Shown piece after piece: positions 2,122-21,835 of a stretch of 64,000 nt of DNA (positions are counted from its first letter, which is position 1; each line of letters opens with the position of its first letter). Made by a program: the position numbers and the translations under genes. A model generated the notes under the pieces. The model searched no databases, was not told the DNA's origin, and saw only the letters and a list, made by a program, of their open reading frames with translations. Location: IMG/VR virus record IMGVR_UViG_3300044655_002046; one strand, given 5' to 3'. This stretch comes from a virus.

Positions 2122-5100
2122 ATGAATACCATCAACTCTATCGTCTTCCAATCTAATGTTCTCGTAGCCTCTATCAGCGCCGCTATCATCGCAGGTGCTC
2201 GTACTGCTGCACGACGTATAGGTCCTGGTCGCCGTGCTCAGCAGATAGCGAGCCGTCGCGCTAATCGCGTAGTACGTCGCCGCTCTCGTCGTATTGTATC
2301 AGCCGGCCGTCCTATCCGTTCTCTACCTCAGCAGCAACGCCCCTGCGTTGTAAAATCAGCACGCCGTAGCGCACGGCGTGCCGCAGCTGCCGCAGCCTCA
2401 GCCGCCCGCAAACCCGTATTACGTAGCCGTAACGTCGTAGACAAACTTGTCTTACGACAACGTAAAGCCAAACCTATACTGCGCGCTGTCAGCGCAGTAT
2501 TTGCGCGTCCCTCGCGTTCTATTAGCACCGGCGCTAAAGCCGTTGCTACCGTAAATAATGCTGCTGGTAGTATTATCGCTGCCCTCGACCAAGGGCGCCT
2601 AAACTATCGCGGCAAGGGCCGTACATGTGTAGGTAAGAAGTACCGCACCAAAAACTCTAAAGTAGCTGTACCTACTAAGAAGGCGGCCGCTAAGGCAGCA
2701 CGCACCAAGCGCTGTATCTCTGCACATGTGAATCTTAACTTAAGTATACATGCTAGTCGACTTATAGACGCTGGCCGATTGTGTGGGGTTACCTTTGTGA
2801 AGGGTGCCCTAGCTTCTTACTGCGATAGCATTATTACCTTACCTGATTTCGAAGATGTGCACGTAGTAGCGCACGAGCTAGTCCACCACTGTCAGGCCCT
2901 AGGTCTTACCAAAGATCTAGATGTCTATACAAATACCTCTGATGCTGCCATTGACGCAGGCTTAATTCAATGGGAAGCCACTAAAGCTCATTATGAAGGT
3001 ACCGAGCACGGGAATGATGAGTATGAAGCCGCCTTTCTAATGTATGATCCAGAGCTAGTAATCCGCCTGCTCTGTACTCATTACTTAATGAGTAAGTTCG
3101 TAAAAAGCGGTAAGCCCAGCGTCGACTACGTGTGGATAGACGTAGTAGATGCCATGAATCCCCTCATCTGCCGTGAAGTCCTGGGTATAGATGACTCCCG
3201 CGTAATTTGGCACAGTACCTACGGGGAGTATTCTGAAGCTGTTGGGCACGACAGCACCGACACACTACTAGACTGGGAATATGTCTATAACAATAGCGTC
3301 AATAATAGTGATCCTATCGCGCTTACTATTCAGGCTGTTAATAACCTGATAGGTAAAGCCCCCGCGGTAGTGAGTACTCCCTCTGTAGTAACTCCGCCTT
3401 GCCCGGCTCCTACTACTCTCAGCAGCATGATGGACCGTCCGCTCTCTAACACAGGAGCCCCTACTAAGGGGTTAGAGAGTGATAGCTCCTATACCAATAC
3501 CACCAACACTAGCACTACCATGAAGAGCATTATCGAGATGTTAATTCCTGACCCTAGTACTCTCGGTGGAGTCGTGTCTCCTAAGCAGGAGGCGCGCATC
3601 ACAGCAGCTCGTAAAGAGTTAACCCGCTTGTTTGGGGCTAATAACTTCGACCTTCTGCCTGAAGGTCCGATTCTCTATGTCGTATCTGGTTACAACCGTA
3701 TGTGTAAGAAGTTCCTTGCGCTTCTAGACCATCGGGTTGTTTACACCACGGATTCTAAAATGAATCCTAAGGTCATTAACTTAGGTGTAACTAAGTCTAT
3801 TCCCTATGAAGACGACAAGCATACCTATACCACTAAGACCGAATGTTTAGTTAGCATGTATAGTGAGCACTTCCTCACTAACTTAGCTACGTGGTCTGGT
3901 GATGACCTGGCCGCTCTCGTAGGCTGTCTGTGTATTAAACAACACCGTATTGTTAGTGTTGAGGGCCCCTGTGTTGTCATCAAGGGTAATAACCGTAACA
4001 CTACTTTCAACTTTAATAGCAGTACCGTCAATGATGGTCGTCAGAGTCGCATCGCTAATGAACTCGTTAAAGTAGGGGGCAAAGATTACAGTGGTCGCGT
4101 AGCCCTTGTAGCACTCTGTATGAAGGTAGTGCATAACGCCACTGGTGCGCGTGCTATCCTCAATGAGGTAACTAACCTGTGGCGCGAGGACATCAACTAT
4201 GGCGCTCAGCCTAAAGAAGGTCAGTCTCTGTTTGAGATTAATCGCGGTACGACTCGTCCTATCGTGTTCAAGCCTTGGGATAAGGCCTTCCCCTTCCTGC
4301 AAGTAGAAAACACTAATCTTGCTCCCAGCGATCTTGAATTGTCGCTCAAGGACGGTGTTATAGCAGCACCTGATAAGTACAATTCAAAATGGATCGCTGT
4401 AGGGACGGCCGCCAAGGCCATGTTCCTCGGACTTAAGGATGGTAAGATATACTCCATCCATGACTTCAGCAAGCCCACTAAGGTATACAACCGTCCACCT
4501 AGCTCGGGTAAATACACCCGTGCTGAGGTGGTAGGTCGTCGTGATAGCCTACTTCGCGTTGATTTAGGTGATGGTAGCTATAGTTGTGGTGGTGGCCTCT
4601 ATCTACGCACCGCATTCACCAATAGCCGCTTTGGCTTTGGCAGTGGTGTTGCTGCTATACGTCGCGACCTTGAGTTCGAATATACTGTACCGAAGACCAT
4701 TACTAAGGAGTTTCACGTACTCCGTATTCCTAGCTCAGTTCGCGCTCTTATGGCTGCTGATCTAGATGACCCCACGAGTAAACTCATGGAAGTCATCGAA
4801 GGCAAGATAGAGAAAGCGAAGGGTCAGGTCTATGCTCCTGGTAACCCTATCATTAGCATTATGCAGGGCAAGTACTGCATAGTGAAGAACGAGACATTCG
4901 CGCAGGACATCCGCGTAATAGGCGGGACTGTCACGCGTAATGGCGTCGAGGGCCGCGCTGATAGCGTCACTATTCGACTTGAGACTGAGATGGTAGGGCG
5001 TGACCAGGCCCTCAAACTCCGCGGTCTAGGTAAGAAGCTTACTACTCTTCCCTATGACGTTGAGGGACTATCTCAACCCTGGGATATCATCCTAAATAAC

Positions 5101-7269
5101 GAAACCACCAAGGGGTGGCCCGCGCTCATAGAGATGTTCGCCATTGAGAAGGGCGGCTGCACTTATACTCCCGAAGGTGCGCTTCTCACTATCGATGCCA
5201 CTGGTGAAGTCATTGATCTCATGGCTAAGACTAATACCTTTACTGAGTGGGCTCGAGCCAAACTAGCTACTGATGATACTGGGGCCAGTGTTAAAGAGGT
5301 CATCTCCTTTGATATGGCTCGTGATCTGTGGGATTCCATCTCCTCCGTAGTAGCTAATGATGACATCAATGTAATCGATATCAACGATACCACTGTCCGT
5401 ATCGAAGAGACCGTCGAAGTTATATACGGTTATCTGCCGTATGATATCGAGATAGCCACTCCTCGTGAGTCCGTAGCATTCTCCAAGATGACTATGGAGC
5501 AAATAGGTATTGTGGCTCTACAGAACCGCGCTTGGAGCGAAGCGCTCATGGAGGAGGTTAAGTACGATAACGTTATGTCCATAGTTAGCATGATCACATC
5601 TAAAGAATGTGCTGATTACATTAACATCAGCACTACAGAGGGGCGTGACCATCTACGGGACATTATCGGTGTAGTTAACAACTACGTTTCTGATAGCGCC
5701 CCTGGCAGTGACCGCAAACTGCTAGACCGTTTTGCCACCGTCTACCCCAATGGAGTGGATATCGTTGCTCAGAATAACGGTAATGAAGTCTCTCTTCATA
5801 TCAATGGTAAGGCCCTAAGCGCGTTCGGTACCTTCTCTGGCGCCTCCGCTACTGGTATTATGCTAGACCTTCTGACACTGTTGGCCTACGTTACTGATGT
5901 AGGGATTGAAGACCAGAGCGGTTTGGATAGTAAAATCTACTCCATGACCGCTAAGGTCAGCCGCGGTTTACGCACATGGTGTAACACCATGGTTAAATCC
6001 AAGAGCATTCTGAAAAGTATGGCCCGCGCCGGCGATGTGGTCGTTGGTAAGGTCAAGACCAGTTATAGCCCGCTGCTCCATAGCGCTGATGGCGTGCCTG
6101 TAATTCTCATGCACCCCGATTGCCCTATGGTGCGTATGCTTGGCATCAAAGAAGGCCAGGTTATTGGGGTACAACGTACTCCTATGGGTTTCATCCTATG
6201 CGGCCGCGTCAAGTTCTCTACTACTGATGCCTTCGTCGCACACTATACGGTCAACCCTCTCCTATGGCACGCCGTTAACGAAGGTGATGCTGATGGTGAT
6301 CAGTGCGGCGGCATTAATGCTCACAAATACGGTATCGACGCTGAGAGTGCCCTCACTATCAATGCTAGTCTCATGGGCATGGGCGGCTACTTCTACTGCT
6401 ACGAAGCAGATGACCTGCCGTTCTTCGCCTTCATGAGCTATGAAGATAAGATGGGCAAGAAATCCCTTACTAAGTGGGATAAGGCTGTAGCCACTGCTAT
6501 CGCTGTCGATAAGTACGTCAGCGACGCTGCTGAGGTGCATATGCACTACAAAGTAGCCGTAGGTGTTGGTTATGGTATCTGTTCTGCACTTGCCTTTCAG
6601 ACATGGGATAGTATGTACCGCGCTAGCGGCGTCGATACCGACGCACTTAAAGCGTGTGTTATCGCTTGGCGTTTCGTCTATGAAAGCATGGGTCTCGGGG
6701 GCTATACCCCTGAGGCTAAGATCTTTATGGCGACCTTAGTACAAGCAGCCCGCGCCTGGGCTGCTGGCGTGCCTATGTATAAGTCAGCACAAGACGGGTT
6801 ATACTACTCTGCTAACTCTACTAAGCTTGCGGATACGGATCGCCAAGGAGGTGGTGTACCTCCTGCTCGGGTTATGGCTGACCTTATGCCCGCTAAGCTG
6901 GCTAAGGAGCCCGCCGTAATCTACCAGCTTATAAAGGCTCGTGCTCGTACTCTCACATACGGCGCTCTCGAACGGGGCAACTTTGCTCGCGAGAGCCTTA
7001 TCATGTCATCTGCTATCTACGGAGCCTTCCGTCGTACTGGCCAGGGTCATGATCCTGTGGTTCCTATGACTCAGGATGACGCGGCCAGTTATGGCGCTGA
7101 TGATATCGTCCCCGTTAGTGTGTTCGACATGGTAAGTGAGTTCCAACTCTCTAACTATGTCAAGAACCCTCAACTCAAGCAGCTGTTGGAAATCGCAACT
7201 GCTGTACATCTCGATCTCGGTGACTACAAACTAGAACTCGCTGAAGCTGAAGATCATCCTGATTTCTAA
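2122..7269 (+). CDS. Single-polypeptide two-barrel (double-psi beta-barrel) DNA-dependent RNA polymerase with Arg/Lys/Ala-rich N-terminus and zincin-like HExxH motif
   Basis: Beta-prime-like VQRTPM...NPLLWHAVNEGDADGDQ (DxDGD at 6286-6300; compare LNRAP...HPLVCAAYNADFDGDQ). Beta-like KLRGLGKKLTTLPYDVEGLSQPWDIILN at about 5014-5097 (compare KMAGRHGNKG...MPYDENGTPVDIVLN). HELVH at 2872-2886 with downstream EYEA. Confidence 0.85.
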   Translation: MNTINSIVFQSNVLVASISAAIIAGARTAARRIGPGRRAQQIASRRANRVVRRRSRRIVSAGRPIRSLPQQQRPCVVKSARRSARRAAAAAASAARKPVLRSRNVVDKLVLRQRKAKPILRAVSAVFARPSRSISTGAKAVATVNNAAGSIIAALDQGRLNYRGKGRTCVGKKYRTKNSKVAVPTKKAAAKAARTKRCISAHVNLNLSIHASRLIDAGRLCGVTFVKGALASYCDSIITLPDFEDVHVVAHELVHHCQALGLTKDLDVYTNTSDAAIDAGLIQWEATKAHYEGTEHGNDEYEAAFLMYDPELVIRLLCTHYLMSKFVKSGKPSVDYVWIDVVDAMNPLICREVLGIDDSRVIWHSTYGEYSEAVGHDSTDTLLDWEYVYNNSVNNSDPIALTIQAVNNLIGKAPAVVSTPSVVTPPCPAPTTLSSMMDRPLSNTGAPTKGLESDSSYTNTTNTSTTMKSIIEMLIPDPSTLGGVVSPKQEARITAARKELTRLFGANNFDLLPEGPILYVVSGYNRMCKKFLALLDHRVVYTTDSKMNPKVINLGVTKSIPYEDDKHTYTTKTECLVSMYSEHFLTNLATWSGDDLAALVGCLCIKQHRIVSVEGPCVVIKGNNRNTTFNFNSSTVNDGRQSRIANELVKVGGKDYSGRVALVALCMKVVHNATGARAILNEVTNLWREDINYGAQPKEGQSLFEINRGTTRPIVFKPWDKAFPFLQVENTNLAPSDLELSLKDGVIAAPDKYNSKWIAVGTAAKAMFLGLKDGKIYSIHDFSKPTKVYNRPPSSGKYTRAEVVGRRDSLLRVDLGDGSYSCGGGLYLRTAFTNSRFGFGSGVAAIRRDLEFEYTVPKTITKEFHVLRIPSSVRALMAADLDDPTSKLMEVIEGKIEKAKGQVYAPGNPIISIMQGKYCIVKNETFAQDIRVIGGTVTRNGVEGRADSVTIRLETEMVGRDQALKLRGLGKKLTTLPYDVEGLSQPWDIILNNETTKGWPALIEMFAIEKGGCTYTPEGALLTIDATGEVIDLMAKTNTFTEWARAKLATDDTGASVKEVISFDMARDLWDSISSVVANDDINVIDINDTTVRIEETVEVIYGYLPYDIEIATPRESVAFSKMTMEQIGIVALQNRAWSEALMEEVKYDNVMSIVSMITSKECADYINISTTEGRDHLRDIIGVVNNYVSDSAPGSDRKLLDRFATVYPNGVDIVAQNNGNEVSLHINGKALSAFGTFSGASATGIMLDLLTLLAYVTDVGIEDQSGLDSKIYSMTAKVSRGLRTWCNTMVKSKSILKSMARAGDVVVGKVKTSYSPLLHSADGVPVILMHPDCPMVRMLGIKEGQVIGVQRTPMGFILCGRVKFSTTDAFVAHYTVNPLLWHAVNEGDADGDQCGGINAHKYGIDAESALTINASLMGMGGYFYCYEADDLPFFAFMSYEDKMGKKSLTKWDKAVATAIAVDKYVSDAAEVHMHYKVAVGVGYGICSALAFQTWDSMYRASGVDTDALKACVIAWRFVYESMGLGGYTPEAKIFMATLVQAARAWAAGVPMYKSAQDGLYYSANSTKLADTDRQGGGVPPARVMADLMPAKLAKEPAVIYQLIKARARTLTYGALERGNFARESLIMSSAIYGAFRRTGQGHDPVVPMTQDDAASYGADDIVPVSVFDMVSEFQLSNYVKNPQLKQLLEIATAVHLDLGDYKLELAEAEDHPDF

Positions 7270-7323: not shown

Positions 7324-7479
7324 GAGCTCTTTACTCCATATGATAGGTAGTATCTGGTATTGCCCATGACAGCGAATGTTACTAGCGGCGGCTTATGCTC
7401 GTGACGGCGAATTCTATTAGCGGTGGCAATAAACTATCTGTTGGGTACTCCCTAAGCACCCAGCAAGAGCTGCGTTAGT

Positions 7480-7765
7480 TTCATTAGCCACTCCCTTTCA
7501 GAAGAGCTATTGTCGCGATAGCTACCATAGCTATACTAGCCACTCCCCAACGGAGGAGCTTATGGTACTCGAGCTGTTCCCCAGCGGAGAGCCTACAGGG
7601 CTCGAGCTGCGAAAGTAGCCAGTGCCACTCCCTAACAGAGGGGCTTGTGTCGCACTAGTTGTGATAACTACTATAGCTGCACTAGCTGCTCTAGCCACTC
7701 CGTTGGGGAGGGCTTATGGTACTCGAGCTGCGAAAGTAGCCGATACCACTCCCCAACGGAGTGAT
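7480..7765 (+). repeat. Array of five degenerate bulged hairpins (GCCACTCC-loop-GGAG-GCT) with repeated GGTACTCGAGCTG(CGAAAGTAGCC); candidate ncRNA
   Basis: CCACTCC units near 7488, 7540, 7625, 7694 and 7746; GCTGC-GAAA-GTAGC hairpin occurs twice; no convincing ORF. Confidence 0.65.
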
Positions 7766-7803: not shown

Positions 7804-8490
7804 ATGAGAACACAACGCACCGCCAAAACCACCGCAGGAACCACCGCCAAAACCACTACTACTCTATCCCCTATAGAAGCATTCAAAGCAGCGGTAGCAG
7901 AACCTAAACCACAGGAATCCAAAGCGCAACTGCTTTTCTCAATAGCGTTTACAACTAAGTTCCTTCCAGAACGCTTTTGGAACAAACCATGCTCCGATGG
8001 GAGCGTACGGTTAGTAGGCACAGTCGCGCGGACTAACAATATTACCCGCCAGGGTTTCCCAATTGCTAACGACCAGCTTGTTGATATGACAGTTGAAGTC
8101 CGGGTAACACCGGACCAATTTGAGATTATCTCTGATGGCGCTGAAGGCATGGTAGGAGCGGGCTTATCCGTTCTCTTCGAGGTCGGGGAGCCCATCTTAT
8201 CCGAACTCACCGTAAACGGTGAGGAAGTCAATAGCATTGTCTTTTACGCTATGGCCTTGGTAGGCATGGAGGTCAATCATACTTCCATTAGCGGTCGAGG
8301 CTTTGATTCAAAGAATGAGATGGATAACTGGTTCTCAAAGGCGCGGTCTCAGAATAATGATCGGCAGAAGCGCCGGCAAGTAGAGCGCACTGCTCAGCTA
8401 CAAGCTGCACAAGCTGCTGCCGCTGCTGCAAATAACGATGCAGAGTGGGCGGCGACGACCCCTGCCGCAAGCACCAATCCTATGGAATAA
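7804..8490 (+). CDS. Hypothetical protein (Thr-rich N-terminus, beta-rich core, basic/Ala helix)
   Basis: 228-aa ORF; architecture similar to 1322..2062. Confidence 0.75.
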   Translation: MRTQRTAKTTAGTTAKTTTTLSPIEAFKAAVAEPKPQESKAQLLFSIAFTTKFLPERFWNKPCSDGSVRLVGTVARTNNITRQGFPIANDQLVDMTVEVRVTPDQFEIISDGAEGMVGAGLSVLFEVGEPILSELTVNGEEVNSIVFYAMALVGMEVNHTSISGRGFDSKNEMDNWFSKARSQNNDRQKRRQVERTAQLQAAQAAAAAANNDAEWAATTPAASTNPME

Positions 8491-15710: not shown

Positions 15711-15942
15711 ATATACAATACGAGCCACAGATGGCAGGTACCTAGCCCCCATTACTATAGAGGAGGCAGAGGAGCTAGAGAGGAGTGGCATAATCAGGCC
15801 AGATGGAGAGGGGGGTTATATCATGGTAGCAGACAGCGCGTTTGCCGTCAGTCAGTACGTGATGTATTGTTGTCAGGACTTATGTGATGACCTATTCGAG
15901 GAGGCGGGGCCCGTCGTAATTGAGAGAACAGCTTCAAGATAG
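15700..15942 (+). CDS. Hypothetical protein
   Basis: 80-aa ORF overlapping the previous stop. Confidence 0.55.
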   Translation: MQTKYTIRATDGRYLAPITIEEAEELERSGIIRPDGEGGYIMVADSAFAVSQYVMYCCQDLCDDLFEEAGPVVIERTASR

Positions 15943-15967
15943 GTGCGTGCAACAGCGTGCAACAGCA

Positions 15968-16654
15968 TCACGCGCAGGCGGCCCGCTCCCTCCTGAAGAT
16001 ATCAAGTAGGGGATCGATAGTAGATCTAAGGCCAGCCAAGAGATGGCGAGCTGCATTCTGAGGGAGGGCCCGCCACCAGCGCTGCACCTTCTCCTGAGCC
16101 CAATCGAGGCCCAATCGTGTCATAGTGCGCTGTAGTGTGAGCTCAAGCAGGTGGGTGAACTGAGCGAAGGGGCGTATATCGCCACTATCGGTACCATAGT
16201 GCACTACCCACTGAGCGGGGTCAGCGATAACCTCAGGATTCTGAGTAGCGTGGGCCAGGAGCTTATTCTCGATAGGGCTCACGTACCAGAGATTACCATA
16301 GTCGTTGTTAGAGGTATCACCATCGAGGTGATGTACTTCCATGAGGCCCGCGCGGCAGACCTCACCACGGCGTTCTCGTCTCCAACCAGCGGCGGGCCGC
16401 CTATCAATGTAGAGAACTATCTGGTGAACATATACCAACTCCTTACGGACGTTAGAGCAATGGAACACGAAGAAGCGGCACTGCTCGAGATAGTCGAATA
16501 GTCGCTTGTTCTCCTTAGCGAGAACGTACTGGTAGCCACTGGCGTTGGTACGAATAGTGGCAGCCGCGAGATAACGGCGGGCCCCACCTAGCATAATATG
16601 CATAGCGTGGTAAGATGGGCGAGGTTCGAATCCGCTACTTGATTTTAGTTCCAT
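15968..16654 (-). CDS. HNH endonuclease
   Basis: VHQIV...EVHHLDGDTSNNDYGNLWYVSPIEN; true start probably near 16600. Confidence 0.8.
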   Translation of the reverse strand: MELKSSSGFEPRPSYHAMHIMLGGARRYLAAATIRTNASGYQYVLAKENKRLFDYLEQCRFFVFHCSNVRKELVYVHQIVLYIDRRPAAGWRRERRGEVCRAGLMEVHHLDGDTSNNDYGNLWYVSPIENKLLAHATQNPEVIADPAQWVVHYGTDSGDIRPFAQFTHLLELTLQRTMTRLGLDWAQEKVQRWWRALPQNAARHLLAGLRSTIDPLLDIFRRERAACA

Positions 16655-16696
16655 GTGCCTCCATGTGTTATAATAGAGAGGTTTTCATGTGTAATT

Positions 16697-17020
16697 ATGC
16701 CGGGCAGCCCCCACGAGATGGGCTCCCGGCATTTACTTATCCCTGGGGACGGCCCCTCCTCGATCCCCCTCCATCGGAGGCCGGGGAAGGGGGAAGGGGG
16801 AAGGGGGGCCCCAGAGATAAGTAAATGAAAATGCCCTACAGATGCATATCCCCCCTCCATCGGAGGCCGGGACGCCATCTATAGGGCATTTGATTATCCG
16901 TTGATCGCGGATCCCCCCCTCCATCGGAGGCCGGGGTCACAATCTAGGGATAGGTTCAACCTACTGGCCAGATATTCAGTAGGTCTAGATCATGCTCACT
17001 GACCAGATATTCAGTGAGCA
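16697..17020. repeat. Six consecutive hairpins: three present the same CCCCCTCCATCGGAGGCCGGG unit and two share a CCAGATATT loop
   Basis: Core repeat at about 16764, 16849 and 16911 sits inside different outer stems (ATTTACTTATC..GATAAGTAAAT; AAATGCCCTACAGATG..CATCTATAGGGCATTT). CTACTG-gCCAGATATT-CAGTAG and GCTCACTG-aCCAGATATT-CAGTGAGC. Confidence 0.8.
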
Positions 17021-17273
17021 CTAGCATATATACATTATACATCGAAATTATCGTCGTGGCAATAATGCCGATGTACTAATTAGCGAGGAAGGCCCGGGCT
17101 CTAGGAGGTAATTACCGTTACCTAGTACAACCCTCGATGGCCATAAGTGGTGCTATCTGGGCGCCGGCCGCATCTCTGTGAAGGGGGGTGATTATTAAGG
17201 CTAATTTTGTGGATATGCTAGCAAGATGGGCCTAAATAGTCTAGCGGCCGCATCTCTATAATCCAATACATCC

Positions 17274-17302
17274 ATTATACCACGCCCCTGCAGTGGTGTC
17301 AA
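17274..17302 (-). promoter_or_regulatory. Consensus sigma70 promoter
   Basis: Minus strand TTGACA-17 nt-TATAAT (plus strand ATTATA 17274-79, TGTCAA 17297-302), pointing into the hairpin array and HNH gene. Confidence 0.75.
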
Positions 17303-17712
17303 CCCCAATATTGAGTAGTCAACTAACATATGGCCCGCGCCGTGGGCGGTATGACGGTACGCGGTCGGTGTAGCTCAGCATTGAGGTCATACTGTCACGA
17401 TGGTGTGCCCTACTACGGTATAAGGAACCGGGGTATAAGCGCAGCTACTGTCATATACCAATGCATATGGGGCCCGCGATGTTATAACACAGTGGGCCCT
17501 GCGGTAGAGGGGGGCCCGCTCTATAATCAGGCGGCCCCTTCCCTCCTCGTGGACTATCAATATAACAGCCCCCTTATAACCACTCCCATAAGAGCGAGGG
17601 GCAGAGCAGGTATAGAACAGGGACTATCCGCGGGCCCCAATGAGAATAATGCGCACAATAGTGCCATACGATAGTCTAGGCGGCCAAATGATAGTATATA
17701 TGTGCCAATATA

Positions 17713-17943
17713 ATGGAACAGCTGATGAATAATGAGAGCAATGCTATAGATTACGCTAAGGCGCGACTAGATGCACACGGCATACCCTGGGCGCCTATCA
17801 GCGATGAGTGTCTCCGCATCATAGTGGGAGAGCGCTCCTACTACTACCTGCGCCGGAGGAATTGGCGGGCCAGAGGGAGTAATAAGGAATATAATATACA
17901 CTCTATCGACCACCTAATAAAATTCCTCTCCAGGATCCCTTAA
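17713..17943 (+). CDS. Small hypothetical protein, paralog of the 18474 locus
   Basis: DYAK..LD.HGI.W...YYY..R.WRA..SNKEY.I.SID.LI. Confidence 0.7.
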   Translation: MEQLMNNESNAIDYAKARLDAHGIPWAPISDECLRIIVGERSYYYLRRRNWRARGSNKEYNIHSIDHLIKFLSRIP

Positions 17944-17944
17944 T

Positions 17945-18410
17945 TAACGGCCCCCTTATGGAAGGGGGCCCCTCTGATTAGCTGTTGTAGGCCTGTGGCG
18001 GGCCGCCCCCGCGTTATCGGGGGCCCAATAATTTATTGGTTACAGCGTCTAATAAACAGCTTCACCCGATTGGGGGAATCGCCAAGGGCGGTTTATATGT
18101 CATCCTGAGGAGAGGATAGGCCTAACTCCCTTATGGGAGTCCCTCCCCCCAGTCGGTCGCTGCTCCGTGGCTCTCATTACCTGCGTGCGCTGCCCCCTCC
18201 CGCCTGCAAGGGGTCATCCCCTCCGCCCCGTGTGGGGCCACATACCTATCGGTATGCCGTTTGACTTACCTGCCATCATCACCTTATCGATGGTAGGTGG
18301 GTGTCGGGTACCCAGGTGGTAGTGAGGCAGTCCTGGCCTCATTCCCTTCGTGCTCTCGTGAGTTAGGGGCACGGCGTACGCAGTATAAAGCTTCGCCTTA
18401 CGTCTGCAGA
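17945..18410. ncRNA. GC-rich, hairpin-dense non-coding region (candidate structured RNA)
   Basis: No ORF of 60 aa or more; many stems, e.g. ACTCCC-TTAT-GGGAGT, CCAATAA-T-TTATTGG, CATACC-TATC-GGTATG; no RNA family recognised. Confidence 0.35.
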
Positions 18411-18473
18411 TGTGTTATACACATGCGTGTATTATAGCACAGGGCCCCCGCCATGTCAATACCCTATCAATTA

Positions 18474-18706
18474 AAATGGATAAGCCCATGAATAATGAAA
18501 ACTTCCCTGAGTTTGATTACGCTAAGGAATGTCTAGATAAACACGGCATTAAATGGTCCTCTATTGGTAATGGGTCCCTACTCATTAACGTTAAGGGCCG
18601 CTTCTACTACTACTATCCGACGCGTAACCGCTAGCGGGCCAAGGACTCGAATAAGGAATATAGTATCCGTTCCATTGATTATCTAATAGAGCTTCTAAGT
18701 AAATAA
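18474..18706 (+). pseudogene. Paralog of 17713..17943 with in-frame TAG
   Basis: TAG at 18632-34 aligns with TGG (Trp) of the paralog; the frame continues RAKDSNKEYSIRSIDYLIELLSK to TAA 18706. Confidence 0.75.
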
Positions 18707-19172
18707 ACGTCATTGATTAACTTGAGCATAAACAACGTAGATATCAAGGCGCGCCACATTAACTCAGACTTGTTCTACTGTGGGCCCGGCCGATTACAGT
18801 AACAGTGCCTTATATTATCGTGTAGAAAACGCACAGCTGCTATGCGCGGGCCAGACTGATTTCACTGTGGAAGCGTAGCGCTGAGCTACGTAATGGATAC
18901 TAGTGTAGAAGCATACGGTGAGTTCGAGCCTAACGCAGTGGTGATTGGTTCGAGAACGAGAAGATCAAAGTCAATAGCGTGATTAAGCTACCGTGTAGAG
19001 TTATACTGCGGGCCCGCAGTATCCATGACCCTCAAGCAAGTAATAGCTCAACATGAGGGGCAATAAGCCCGCGGGCCCCTAACCCGTAGTAGTGGCCTTA
19101 GCACGAGCGGGCCCCCATAGGTATACCTACTGAATAATAGACTATGAGACCATAGCTACAGTCTCCCAGTAA

Positions 19173-19245
19173 GCAGAATTGGCCGATTGGTATAGGCACC
19201 GTCCTCATAAGACGGCTTAAAGTGGTTCGATTCCGCTATTCTGCA
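19173..19245 (+). tRNA. tRNA with CAT anticodon (elongator Met or Ile2)
   Basis: Acceptor GCAGAAT/ATTCTGC, anticodon arm CCGTC-CTCATAA-GACGG, T arm AGTGG-TTCGATT-CCGCT; no initiator hallmarks; CCA not encoded. Confidence 0.92.
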
Positions 19246-19658
19246 TACAGCGTTAGAGCAAAACCCACAACGTCATATAAGCATAGCTTATCAATAACCA
19301 TCAGAGTGCCATTCTACCCCCTGGGGCAAATCTATTAACTATTGATTATAGTATATAGTAATGTTACTTAGTATAGAGTACAGTATTGTATATCAATAAG
19401 TTATACTTATCAATTAAATATTCGACAGCTTCTCTAACATCAGATATATATGCCCATAACATACAGTTAGAATATGTAACAATTCAAACAATAATAATTG
19501 GGGTTTTTAATACAGCGTTGAAAATACGGCAAATATCGCCATATTCAAGCAATATTTAAACATATATTAAGCTATCAAATGCGAGCGAAACCTAGGCAAA
19601 GGGATAGACAAGAGTGAGTAGTAGGGAGTCCCCACTTAATTATTAAGGATATACAGGC

Positions 19659-19871
19659 ATGTCAATAACAGTATTAGCATTAAATGCGGTCTTTACCGTG
19701 TACATAGTATTCCTGATGTATCTGATTCCTAGAGTAGGGCCCCGCGATAAGTGGGGCCTTGTCGCGTTAATATGCGCTATAGCGGTGATATGGTTATCAA
19801 TCATGTCTGCTGGGGGGCCCACCAGCGATACATGTAGTAGAGTATTACACTACTCTACATCTAGGCTATAA
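19659..19871 (+). CDS. Small two-TM membrane protein
   Basis: Two hydrophobic segments. Confidence 0.55.
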   Translation: MSITVLALNAVFTVYIVFLMYLIPRVGPRDKWGLVALICAIAVIWLSIMSAGGPTSDTCSRVLHYSTSRL

Positions 19872-20172
19872 CGCTGTAGACTTAATACTTGTAGTGTATA
19901 AGACGAGGCCCGCGCTATAATAAGAGTAGAGTCGGTATAATCCCTAATAAGACAGGCGGCCGACTCTACTACCCTGCATACGGTAAACTCTATCAAGAAT
20001 TAAGCTTAGGAGGAAGATAGTGATTTTATTGCTTTCGCAGATTGGTGGACTAGTCTTCTTTGTAATTCTGCTTCACAGACTGCTACATCGTTTCTATGTG
20101 GCAGCGTGGGACAGGAATGCAGAGAAACTACTCAGAAAAGGTATAAAGTAACAAACAGGACATCAGGACATC

Positions 20173-20322
20173 ATGACACAAGAACAACTATTAGCAGAGA
20201 ATACTGCATTAAAGCAGAGAGTAGAGGAGCTACAGCTAGAAATTAAGCAACTGAAGCAAGACGTGAAAGAGTTAACACTAAGCTTAGATTCAAAGACATA
20301 CTCTTCTCTTTATAGAGACTAG
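20173..20322 (+). CDS. 49-aa coiled-coil protein (MTQEQLLAENTALKQRVEELQLEIKQLKQDVKEL)
   Basis: AGGA RBS, heptad pattern. Confidence 0.55.
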   Translation: MTQEQLLAENTALKQRVEELQLEIKQLKQDVKELTLSLDSKTYSSLYRD

Positions 20323-20350
20323 TTATATAGAGGGGCCCCCGCCCCAACAA

Positions 20351-20423
20351 GCAGGATTGGCCGATAGGTGGAGGCACCGTCCTCATAAGACGGCTTAGAG
20401 CGGTTCGATTCCGCTATCCTGCA
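20351..20423 (+). tRNA. Second tRNA-CAT, diverged copy
   Basis: Acceptor GCAGGAT/ATCCTGC (compensatory change versus copy 1), identical anticodon arm. Confidence 0.92.
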
Positions 20424-20479
20424 TTCAGATAATATAGGCCCCCCTATTAGGAATACAATATACAATACTAAGGAGAGCC

Positions 20480-20770
20480 ATGAAAGTATTAACCTCTTAC
20501 GTTTTATATCCATCGCCAGACGAGCAGATCAACATTAAGAAGTACGCGTGCTTCACAAAGCACATCATCAGCGTAGAGATTGATGTGGTAATGTGACTTA
20601 ATAATGAGGCCCGCAGTGTCCAGCTGATGAAATACCTACTCAACACACTGAAGCTACAGTATACAGAACACGAGGATGGGTTTATGATCAGATTGCATAA
20701 GTTAGTATATACTGATGGCTCTACGGCACTAATAGTGCCAACGGCATATACAGATAAACTACTAAATTAA
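20480..20770 (+). pseudogene. ORF interrupted by in-frame TGA at 20594
   Basis: AGGAG RBS and ATG; 38 codons, TGA, then 57 open codons to TAA. Confidence 0.5.
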
Positions 20771-20890
20771 TCAGAGCACAGTGTAGTATATCACAAGGGG
20801 CCCGCCTCACTCTCAACTACATACAGCTCTAATAGACTACGTCTATTATCAATCACATCCCTGCTGGCAGGGATGTATATCAATAGCTAA

Positions 20891-21835
20891 TCAGCTCCAC
20901 AGGCGAGGTAACATCTCCTTGCACTTGTGTATATACCAGTGACCTTCAGCAGGAGTATTATCTAGTGCTTCTTGGAATAGCATATCGCGCAGTTGCTGTA
21001 TAGTCATAAATGAAACAGGCTCGTGCAATAAACGTTGTGCTTGAGGAGTAATGCTGGGCCCCACGAATATGAACTCAACTGGCGTGTCGAAGTGGTTAGT
21101 GGCCAGTTCTATATAGCCCTTATCAGCTATAGTAGATACTACGTCTTCTAAGCTAATAGGGTTAATCTTAATCTCAATGACCTGTGTCTTACCATTACTA
21201 GAACGGCATAGGTCAAAGCGGCGAGTACGGGCCCGAGTCTCTAGTGTGTTAGTTACTGTTAACTCTCTAGTGAAGGGATTAGTAGTATAACTAGCTAATA
21301 ATACTAGATCCATCTGTAACTCAAGCTCAGAGTTATAAGTGGGGCCAGGTGTCTCTGCATTACGTATAGATACAGCTTGTGGTCTAGGTGTCGTCTTAGT
21401 TCTCTCTACACTGCGAGAGAGAGTGGGGCCCAACTTAATATTATTATGGAGGGCTATACGCCCATACGCCGCTGTCCAGTTACATACCCATAAGTGATTA
21501 TTATAGTAATTGATATCGTAGTAAGTATATAATGCTCTCTGGAATGGTTTAATGGCTATAGCATCTAGCTTAATCAGACGAGGTTTAGGTAGACCAGGTT
21601 TATCTACCCAAGCGCGCACAATAGGGTTAAATAAGTTTCTGACATTGCTAACCGACATCTTGAGTCTTTGTGCTATCTCAGGCATCAAGAAGTAAGCATC
21701 CTTACCGTCTCTATCAGGTACCCAAGTGAGTTCGTATTCACCAACCCAGTGAACTAATTGATCTAGTATGGGGCCCGCGCAATCAGGATACTCTTTAAGT
21801 ATGGCCGCAGATAAATCTGGTAGTGCAACTGGCAT
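20891..21835 (-). CDS. HTH-like N-terminus + PD-(D/E)xK nuclease
   Basis: YFLMPEIAQRLKMSVSNVRNL; RFDL...QVIEIK. Confidence 0.7.
   Translation of the reverse strand: MPVALPDLSAAILKEYPDCAGPILDQLVHWVGEYELTWVPDRDGKDAYFLMPEIAQRLKMSVSNVRNLFNPIVRAWVDKPGLPKPRLIKLDAIAIKPFQRALYTYYDINYYNNHLWVCNWTAAYGRIALHNNIKLGPTLSRSVERTKTTPRPQAVSIRNAETPGPTYNSELELQMDLVLLASYTTNPFTRELTVTNTLETRARTRRFDLCRSSNGKTQVIEIKINPISLEDVVSTIADKGYIELATNHFDTPVEFIFVGPSITPQAQRLLHEPVSFMTIQQLRDMLFQEALDNTPAEGHWYIHKCKEMLPRLWS

Follow-up and report, generated by a model that had tools for sequence, protein, structure and literature searches.

A candidate minus-strand non-coding RNA gene with repeated hairpin tips in Ma-LMM01-type Microcystis phages

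We report a stretch of Microcystis phage DNA that, in a reading held with moderate confidence, is an undescribed minus-strand non-coding RNA gene of phages of the Ma-LMM01/MaMV type, made up of two promoters (P1 and P2), a 5' domain, the consecutive hairpins H6-H5-H4-H3 and a U-rich end. It lies in IMG/VR virus record IMGVR_UViG_3300044655_002046, of which the 64,000 nucleotides analysed are termed the window below; the window derives from a Fukuivirus, i.e. a Microcystis phage of the Ma-LMM01/MaMV-DC type. Under this reading the host sigma-70 RNA polymerase would initiate near 17267 (P1) and near 17027 (P2), and the RNA would fold into a 5' multi-helix domain, present only in transcripts from P1, and then four stem-loops, with H6 and H5 presenting a common 10-nt loop and H4 and H3 a common GG-bulged tip with a GAU triloop. 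Most transcripts would probably terminate at H3 and the U-rich tail, with lengths of about 450 and 200 nt, and some polymerases may read on into an adjacent gene for an HNH endonuclease. The two remaining hairpins, H2 and H1, would form a fast-changing junction where the RNA unit meets the HNH gene and a plus-strand promoter directed towards the hairpins. Such an RNA would most likely act in trans, its repeated hairpin tips being offered to a host or phage protein.

The initial annotation of this DNA had already proposed an undescribed structured RNA read from a minus-strand promoter, and this proposal is supported by a strand bias in the folding, compensatory changes in H3, the edges of the conserved block and the lack of an Rfam match. 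In a covariance-model search of the 4227 Rfam families the gathering threshold was passed by two tRNA-Met genes only; up to an E-value of 1 no family was recovered for the hairpin region, with H2 giving a chance match to a microRNA hairpin at 26.5 bits against a threshold of 76. We also found no published description of this RNA in the literature. Among the phages that kill Microcystis, a toxic bloom-former, those of the Ma-LMM01 type have been studied best, yet the bulk of their genes and the whole of their non-coding DNA lack an explanation; the locus contributes a candidate RNA gene whose limits are clearly drawn and whose start and end can be put to the test. An RNA acting on host defence or transcription would be a novel instrument at the RNA level, in a host whose defence arsenal is unusually large; a mere leader or stop signal would amount to ordinary regulation.

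The hairpin locus and its repeated units

A megablast search with positions 15900-21000 matched solely Microcystis myophages of the genus Fukuivirus, at 87-90% identity, the phages listed being Ma-LMM01, MaMV-DC, DH01, CH01, CH02, DL01 and DL02. The segment holds a 4.2-kb zone poor in open reading frames (16655-20890), which contains two tRNA-Met genes and is flanked on one side by an HNH_3 endonuclease gene (15968-16654, minus strand) and on the other by a NucS-like gene. The hairpins occupy the left end of this zone. The genes on the left-hand side are homologues of gp063-gp054, which are early genes of Ma-LMM01 (PMC5780444), and the hairpin locus stands at the close of the early region instead of preceding it. 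The zone also includes two paralogous small gp048-like genes (17713-17943 and 18488-18706), in the second of which the Trp of the paralogue is replaced by an in-frame TAG (PTRNR*RAKDSNKEY), so that this gene is either broken or read through.

Six hairpins (H1-H6, 16699-17020) are predicted on either strand of 16690-17025, the fold of which reaches -175 kcal/mol on the plus strand (z -7.5 against shuffles) and -187 kcal/mol on the minus strand (z -9.0). Three of them contain a 22-nt unit, CCCCCTCCATCGGAGGCCGGGG, which starts at 16765, 16851 (21 of 22 bases) and 16915, at spacings of 86 and 64 nt. The 13-nt core of this motif has three copies in the 64 kb, all at the hairpin locus, where 0.07 would be expected, and none of 100 shuffles reached three. 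The first copy (16765-16786) sits in H2 (16730-16827), which combines conserved A/U-rich arms with a hypervariable interior; the second (16851-16872) belongs to H3 (16828-16891, minus strand), a hairpin comprising a 16-bp stem, an internal loop, a 5-bp stem, a GG bulge and a 5-bp tip with a GAU triloop; and the third (16915-16936) is borne on the long stem of H4 (16895-16952, minus strand). H5 (16960-16983, minus strand) has a stem of 7-9 bp and the loop AAUAUCUGGC, and H6 (16993-17020, minus strand) a stem of 9-10 bp and the loop AAUAUCUGGU, both loops being given as on the minus strand. These two hairpins share ACTG(G/A)CCAGATATTCAGT, a 10-nt loop, on different outer stems. When they are compared as duplicates on the minus strand all nine of nine pairs are able to pair, and four of them differ on both sides; a deletion has removed H5 from MaMV-CH01 and CH02. 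H1 (16699-16730) has the outer stem GCCGGG/CCCGGC, with ATTTACTTAT coming next on the plus strand; no relative has lost this stem, not even Ma-LMM01 or a divergent contig, L043, which is described below.

The triplicate triloop/bulge unit and the two further hairpins with one loop on different stems, both reported in the initial annotation, are thus upheld. Its description of identical tips on unrelated long stems stands as regards the three tips but does not hold for all of the stems: the left arms of H2 and H4 both read GGCATTT(ac/ga)TTATCC (i.e. GGCATTTnnTTATCC) and their right arms both read AGGGATA(A/G)G, which identifies these hairpins as paralogues or duplicates. Similarly, the CTCC/GGAG stem does resemble, as had been suggested, an array near 7.5 kb, yet the resemblance is limited to the CTCC/GGAG tip, since the array (7468-7763) is a different repeat family of the form GCCACTCC-loop-GGAG. 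Five such GCCACTCC-loop-GGAG units lie there directly upstream of the first early gene (7804-8490, a gp063 homologue by gene order), and one of their loops is the reverse complement of another. The minimum of the cumulative GC skew of the window falls at 7-8 kb. A copy of the tip with one mismatch (CCTCCAACGGAGG) is found at the end of a rIIA-like gene (KF356199.1, 2414-2426), and likewise in three other complete Fukuivirus genomes, where it is probably a terminator hairpin.

A search for the motif as a 19-mer yielded 14 stretches on 11 IMG/VR contigs, all of which represent the hairpin locus of Fukuiviruses. Among 185,579 prokaryote species, with one genome each, there were five single matches in unrelated bacteria, four of them Actinobacteria, and none in Microcystis, so a host origin of the motif was rejected. 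Its restriction to one phage locus and its absence from Microcystis mean that the motif cannot be classed as a host repeat or as a dispersed mobile element.

Conservation and the strand that folds

In an alignment of 17 loci, with Ma-LMM01 excluded from the score, the non-coding block 16823-17322 showed a conservation of 0.91-0.97, the HNH coding sequence scoring 0.86-0.99. Its flanks are less conserved, with values of 0.52-0.72 for 16673-16822, which includes H1 and H2 (H2 itself 0.52-0.65), and of 0.49-0.86 for 17323-17822. The edges of the block coincide with the end of H3 on one side and the -35 element of P1 on the other, as expected for a transcription unit read leftwards from P1.

Folding of 12 variants gave a more stable minus strand in every case, by 6-26 kcal/mol. 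The consensus fold of 11 sequences reaches -161 kcal/mol on the minus strand, where 15 one-sided changes keep pairing through G.U and four pairs are broken; on the plus strand it reaches -134 kcal/mol, with seven one-sided changes kept and about nine pairs broken. Two pairs in the H4 stem (351/387 and 353/385) illustrate this, in that CG and UG are their sole variants on the minus strand, where the plus strand would have C.A mismatches. Since every change that creates a wobble on the minus strand creates a C.A mismatch on the other, the bias singles out the minus strand as the one required to fold. Two-sided changes are absent from all 142 pairs within the Fukuiviruses, the sequences being too alike.

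Such changes are provided by L043, a 1.1-kb ENA contig found by protein search, which encodes an HNH homologue 77% identical to that of the window and has homologues of H3, H2 and H1 upstream of this gene in unchanged order. The layout of H3 is intact in L043 down to its internal loop, GG bulge and GAU triloop. With L043 included, four of the 26 pairs of H3 have both partners replaced (two A-U pairs by G-C and two C-G pairs by U-A), a count reached by none of 500 shuffles, and 97.9% of cells pair. Six more pairs are altered on one side only, all of them to wobbles that are valid solely on the minus, i.e. HNH-sense, strand. This compensatory evidence in H3 comes from the one divergent contig; DNA 20-mer and protein searches of IMG/VR and the JGI metagenomes returned no longer contig of the L043 lineage. 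The tip reads CUUCU-GAU-GGAAG in L043 and CCUCC-GAU-GGAGG in the window, so that the shape is kept and the letters are not.

The gene-proximal hairpins, H1 and H2, are variable. The arms of H2 co-vary among relatives (TTTAC/GTAAA, TTTTC/GAAAA and TTTGC/GCAAA) and compensate in L043 as well (ATTTGCTTATC with GACAAGCAAAT), where the interior is unrelated and the motif absent. MaMV-DC, CH01 and CH02 have a plain H2 devoid of the motif. In Ma-LMM01 the interior is inverted along with its flank TCCCCAAT, and the inclusion of this flank fits a flip between the hairpin arms and not an insertion or transposition. The identical tip had been put forward initially as the selected feature; this view is not supported, given that the letters of the motif change in L043, are dispensable in H2 and are inverted in Ma-LMM01.

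Palindrome arms can also co-vary through DNA-level repair, with no selection on an RNA, and the palindromes could act as DNA, be it as a recombination or repair hotspot, a region cleaved by the HNH protein, a replication origin or a packaging signal, with DNA-level correction matching the arms. The flip of the H2 interior and flank between hairpin arms in Ma-LMM01 is in line with this, as are the clustering of indels, CRISPR-repeat insertions and transposases in the ORF-poor zone of relatives and the adjacent gene for a homing-type nuclease. However, symmetric correction of DNA does not predict the preference of one-sided changes for one strand noted above (15 kept and four broken against seven and about nine), and the variable H1-H2 are distinct from the conserved part between H3 and P1. 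Furthermore, the motif is not dispersed, the cumulative GC skew has no turning point at the hairpins, and we saw nothing there that points to an origin or a packaging site. We hence regard an action as DNA as decidedly improbable, and return to the minus-strand RNA.

Promoters, transcript ends and the HNH gene

P1 (17274-17302, minus strand) is a predicted TTGACA-17-TATAAT promoter that agrees with the sigma-70 consensus in 12 of 12 positions and has a TG before the -10 element, with a predicted start near 17267. Both of its hexamers are kept in nine relatives, CH02 and DL01 showing TTGACG. The initial annotation described it as a perfect minus-strand promoter pointing into six hairpins; the perfect match stands, yet the first hairpin is about 250 nt away, and an additional promoter, P2 (17034-17062, minus strand), was missed. 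P2 reads TTGCCA-17-TATAAT (11 of 12), is placed directly before H6 with a predicted start near 17027, and no relative possessing this stretch shows a change in the P2 hexamers. In their hexamers, 17-nt spacing and conservation among relatives both predicted promoters are of the sigma-70 type. The perfect form TTGACA-N16-18-TATAAT occurs at just two sites in the window (0.07 expected), both on the minus strand and in the ORF-poor zone. The second of these (18459-18431) is the homologue of a Ma-LMM01 promoter that reads into CRISPR repeats, and faces a 480-nt, ORF-free and G+C-rich stretch (17945-18459), whose conservation in MaMV-DC and DH01 is 95% and whose fold surpasses its shuffles (z -4.4 on the minus and -5.9 on the plus strand).

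The part specific to P1 transcripts (17021-17267, minus strand; conservation 0.87-0.97) is predicted to adopt a multi-branch fold, with a long-range closing helix between 17021-17034 and 17208-17221 and a hairpin at 17038-17075. Its helices are present in the minus-strand consensus fold, with one-sided GU/AU and GC/GU changes, and the minus-strand fold of 16815-17267 as a whole has a z-score of -5.5.

That the tips are instead promoters or stop signals for a phage RNA polymerase, either as DNA hairpins like those of phage N4 or through a large protein with a DxDGD motif (2122-7269), appears very improbable indeed. Hairpins of the form CTCC-N3-5-GGAG are confined to this locus and to about 7.5-8.0 kb, in the latter case mostly in the array before the early operon; the 1715-aa protein has a single GDADGD motif; and the early promoters predicted for Ma-LMM01 are poor matches to sigma-70 (PMC5780444). 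However, Pfam and PDB sequence searches with this protein, which is a homologue of Ma-LMM01 gp064 by gene order and size, gave no match. The N4-like alternative of the initial annotation is not supported: no T7-type polymerase (Pfam RNA_pol, PF00940) was found in three complete Fukuivirus genomes, a search whose control was uninformative since the control genomes also went without a match. N4-like promoters are expected before early genes as hairpins with a conserved 5-7 bp sequence and a 3-nt loop, whereas here L043 keeps the pairing and not the letters of the tip, and the locus ends the early region. Moreover, the consensus sigma-70 promoters would already account for transcription at the locus. 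If the 1715-aa protein is a single-chain two-barrel RNA polymerase, as proposed earlier, some promoters of the phage may be of a non-sigma-70 type.

The 3' end of the minus-strand RNA would lie in a U-rich tract, UUUCAUUUACUUAU (16814-16827), that comes after H3 and at the same time forms the right arm of H2; all relatives, even L043, have U-rich sequence behind H3. The scan of 15800-18200 called no canonical rho-independent terminator. By eye, H3 is followed by UUUUCAUUUACUUAU on the minus strand and H1 by AUUUACUUAU on the plus strand, both tracts being U-rich but interrupted, kept in relatives and part of the arms of H2. On the opposite side, an extended -10 box read from the plus strand, TGTTATAAT (16666-16674), adjoins the HNH start codon and faces the hairpins. 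It was not called by the promoter scan as it has no -35 element, but TGYTATAAT or TGTTATACT is kept on this strand in every relative, even in L043 despite its diverged flanks. This conserved box suggests that transcription probably converges on the hairpins from both sides, with the plus strand probably being transcribed too.

The neighbouring gene encodes a protein of 228 aa (Pfam HNH_3, E 9.5e-6), a homologue of Ma-LMM01 gp051, which contains the motif EVHHLDGD...NN...N and, judging by these features, is an ordinary endonuclease of the homing type. Identity to its relatives is 92-99% within the Fukuiviruses, 77% for L043 and 33-41% for further large contigs, themselves probably of phage origin. 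Each of these distant homologues has a gene-free stretch of about 430-470 nt upstream, and the two that are readable (L040:3575-4000 and L042:3532-4000) yielded neither related hairpins nor an Rfam match. Ma-LMM01 keeps the HNH gene, H1 and H2 and lacks H3-H6, P2 and the 5' domain, which means that the RNA is separable from the nuclease. The proposal that the RNA partners the HNH protein is accordingly not supported: the gene is a neighbour and probably not a functional partner, and an HNH-guided RNA system was rejected in view of the architecture of the protein and the retention of the gene in Ma-LMM01 in the absence of the RNA.

Published RNA-seq data concern Ma-LMM01 alone, that is, a phage without H3-H6 (PMC5780444). 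In Table S3 of that source gp051 (HNH) and gp052 constitute an expression class of their own, with a log2 FPKM of 13.2 that is the highest at 3 h among gp001-gp090 and a signal already at 0 h. These genes are convergent, and their equal values suggest one transcript over both, with a library that was perhaps not strand-specific. In the same table gp049 and gp050, the genes spanning H1, H2 and the repeats, stand at 8.8-9.1, about 20-fold below the HNH gene, and on these values the zone is transcribed in Ma-LMM01.

These data bear on two further explanations. In the first, the HNH mRNA begins with the hairpins as its long 5' leader, all six being crossed by transcripts that start at P1 and P2, and the structures set stability, processing or attenuation such that the nuclease is made late or sparingly. 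The orientation fits, a strong promoter is absent between H1 and the start codon, L043 retains the order H3-H2-H1-HNH, and in the tabulated Ma-LMM01 values the HNH gene has one of the most abundant transcripts at 3 h. Against this, the same values show strong expression of the gene in a phage that has neither H3-H6 nor the 5' domain, and a roughly 20-fold fall in coverage just upstream of it; besides, a U-rich tract stands behind H3, and it is the gene-proximal H1-H2 that are least conserved and the farthest part that is most conserved. A leader function is therefore unlikely in our estimate, while deserving more weight than any of the other alternatives.

In the second, the hairpins have no RNA function of their own and serve as a two-way stop between converging units, formed by H1 and ATTTACTTAT for the plus strand and by H3 and the U-tract for the minus strand. 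Promoters do face one another across the hairpins, the arms of H2 give U-rich tracts in both directions, and expression in the available Ma-LMM01 data drops sharply at H1 and H2. Nevertheless, a stop of this kind leaves about 450 nt conserved at 0.91-0.97, two promoters and the 5' domain unexplained, does not account for the repeated loops and tips on four hairpins or for the strand-specific wobbles, and sits poorly with the failure of the scan to call a canonical terminator. We deem it improbable, and the non-coding RNA ending at H3 is the reading retained in what follows.

CRISPR repeats in sibling phages and likeness to known systems

The same site is occupied by other elements in sibling phages. 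Where H3-H6 lie in the window, Ma-LMM01 has three copies (36 of 37 bases) of a Microcystis type I-D CRISPR repeat, positioned behind another perfect minus-strand promoter; CH01, CH02 and DL01 have two such repeats each, upstream of P1 and in the same orientation, alongside the RNA. Their presence in these four phages implies that the site is used for other non-coding RNA in sibling phages. The copies of this repeat (DR1) are located at L001:3877-4055 in Ma-LMM01 and at L023 and L025:2738-2849 and L024:2827-2938 in CH01/CH02/DL01. They have an array-like spacing behind a perfect TTGACA-17-TATAAT, and GenBank annotates them as nothing more than a '56 bp repeat unit'. Among the spacers, one of Ma-LMM01 repeats window positions 17143-17178 in inverted form with two mismatches, and that of CH02 and DL01 is an inverted copy of the adjacent promoter. 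The innermost repeat of Ma-LMM01 abuts GGGCATTTACTTAT (L001:3858-3876; window 16828-16840), and in window-type phages the bases GGGCATTTACTTAT follow GTA on the minus strand. We take GTA to be a type I-D PAM (GTH), and the innermost repeat of Ma-LMM01 seems to be joined where a target would begin.

In this light the RNA could be a trans-acting decoy against host defence, whose tips would sequester an immune or RNA-binding protein of the host, with the site being an exchangeable anti-defence slot that siblings have filled with host CRISPR repeats; we offer this as a speculation with a low chance of being right. The window itself has no match to the core of the Microcystis type I-D repeat even at three mismatches, this core being present among the phages in Ma-LMM01, CH01, CH02 and DL01 only, and a CRISPR array or an RNA anti-CRISPR repeat mimic was rejected for the window because copies of the host repeat are absent. 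The repeats of the sibling phages are like the RNA anti-CRISPRs and virus-borne mini-CRISPR arrays described elsewhere (PMC10651486, PMC6858448; cyanophage N-1, PMC4916379), from which the window differs in having no CRISPR repeat. Compared by eye, its hairpins are also unlike all seven Microcystis repeat types of PMC4428289.

Several other systems offer partial parallels. Palindromes of the REP/BIME and MITE types are comparable to the motif as short, imperfect and bulged palindromes that are found in either orientation and, at the H2 tip, are present or absent among strains; a dispersed mobile palindrome was nonetheless rejected, as each of four complete phage genomes has the motif at this single locus only. 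Repeats akin to ToxI of type III toxin-antitoxin systems were discarded in view of the uneven spacing of 86 and 64 nt and of a neighbour that belongs to HNH_3 and is not of the ToxN type; a tandem-repeat finder picked out only a GGGGAAG run. The HEARO or omega RNA of IscB is likewise a structured RNA of a few hundred nucleotides just upstream of an HNH-domain gene in the same orientation. It differs in that the HEARO model of Rfam has no match here up to an E-value of 1, in that IscB has a RuvC domain split by an HNH insertion whereas Pfam finds only HNH_3 in the 228-aa neighbour, and in that Ma-LMM01 keeps the HNH protein without the RNA.

A last parallel is with structured small RNAs and leaders encoded by phages, among them the put RNAs of phage HK022, which consist of two stem-loops just downstream of early promoters and act on RNA polymerase. 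The hairpin RNA has no sequence or Rfam relation to them, is much longer, with four to six hairpins and a 5' domain, and is found at the far end, and not at the start, of the early region. What it has in common with the put RNAs is its predicted non-coding nature, strong host-type promoters directly ahead, consecutive stem-loops and the conservation of structure over sequence.
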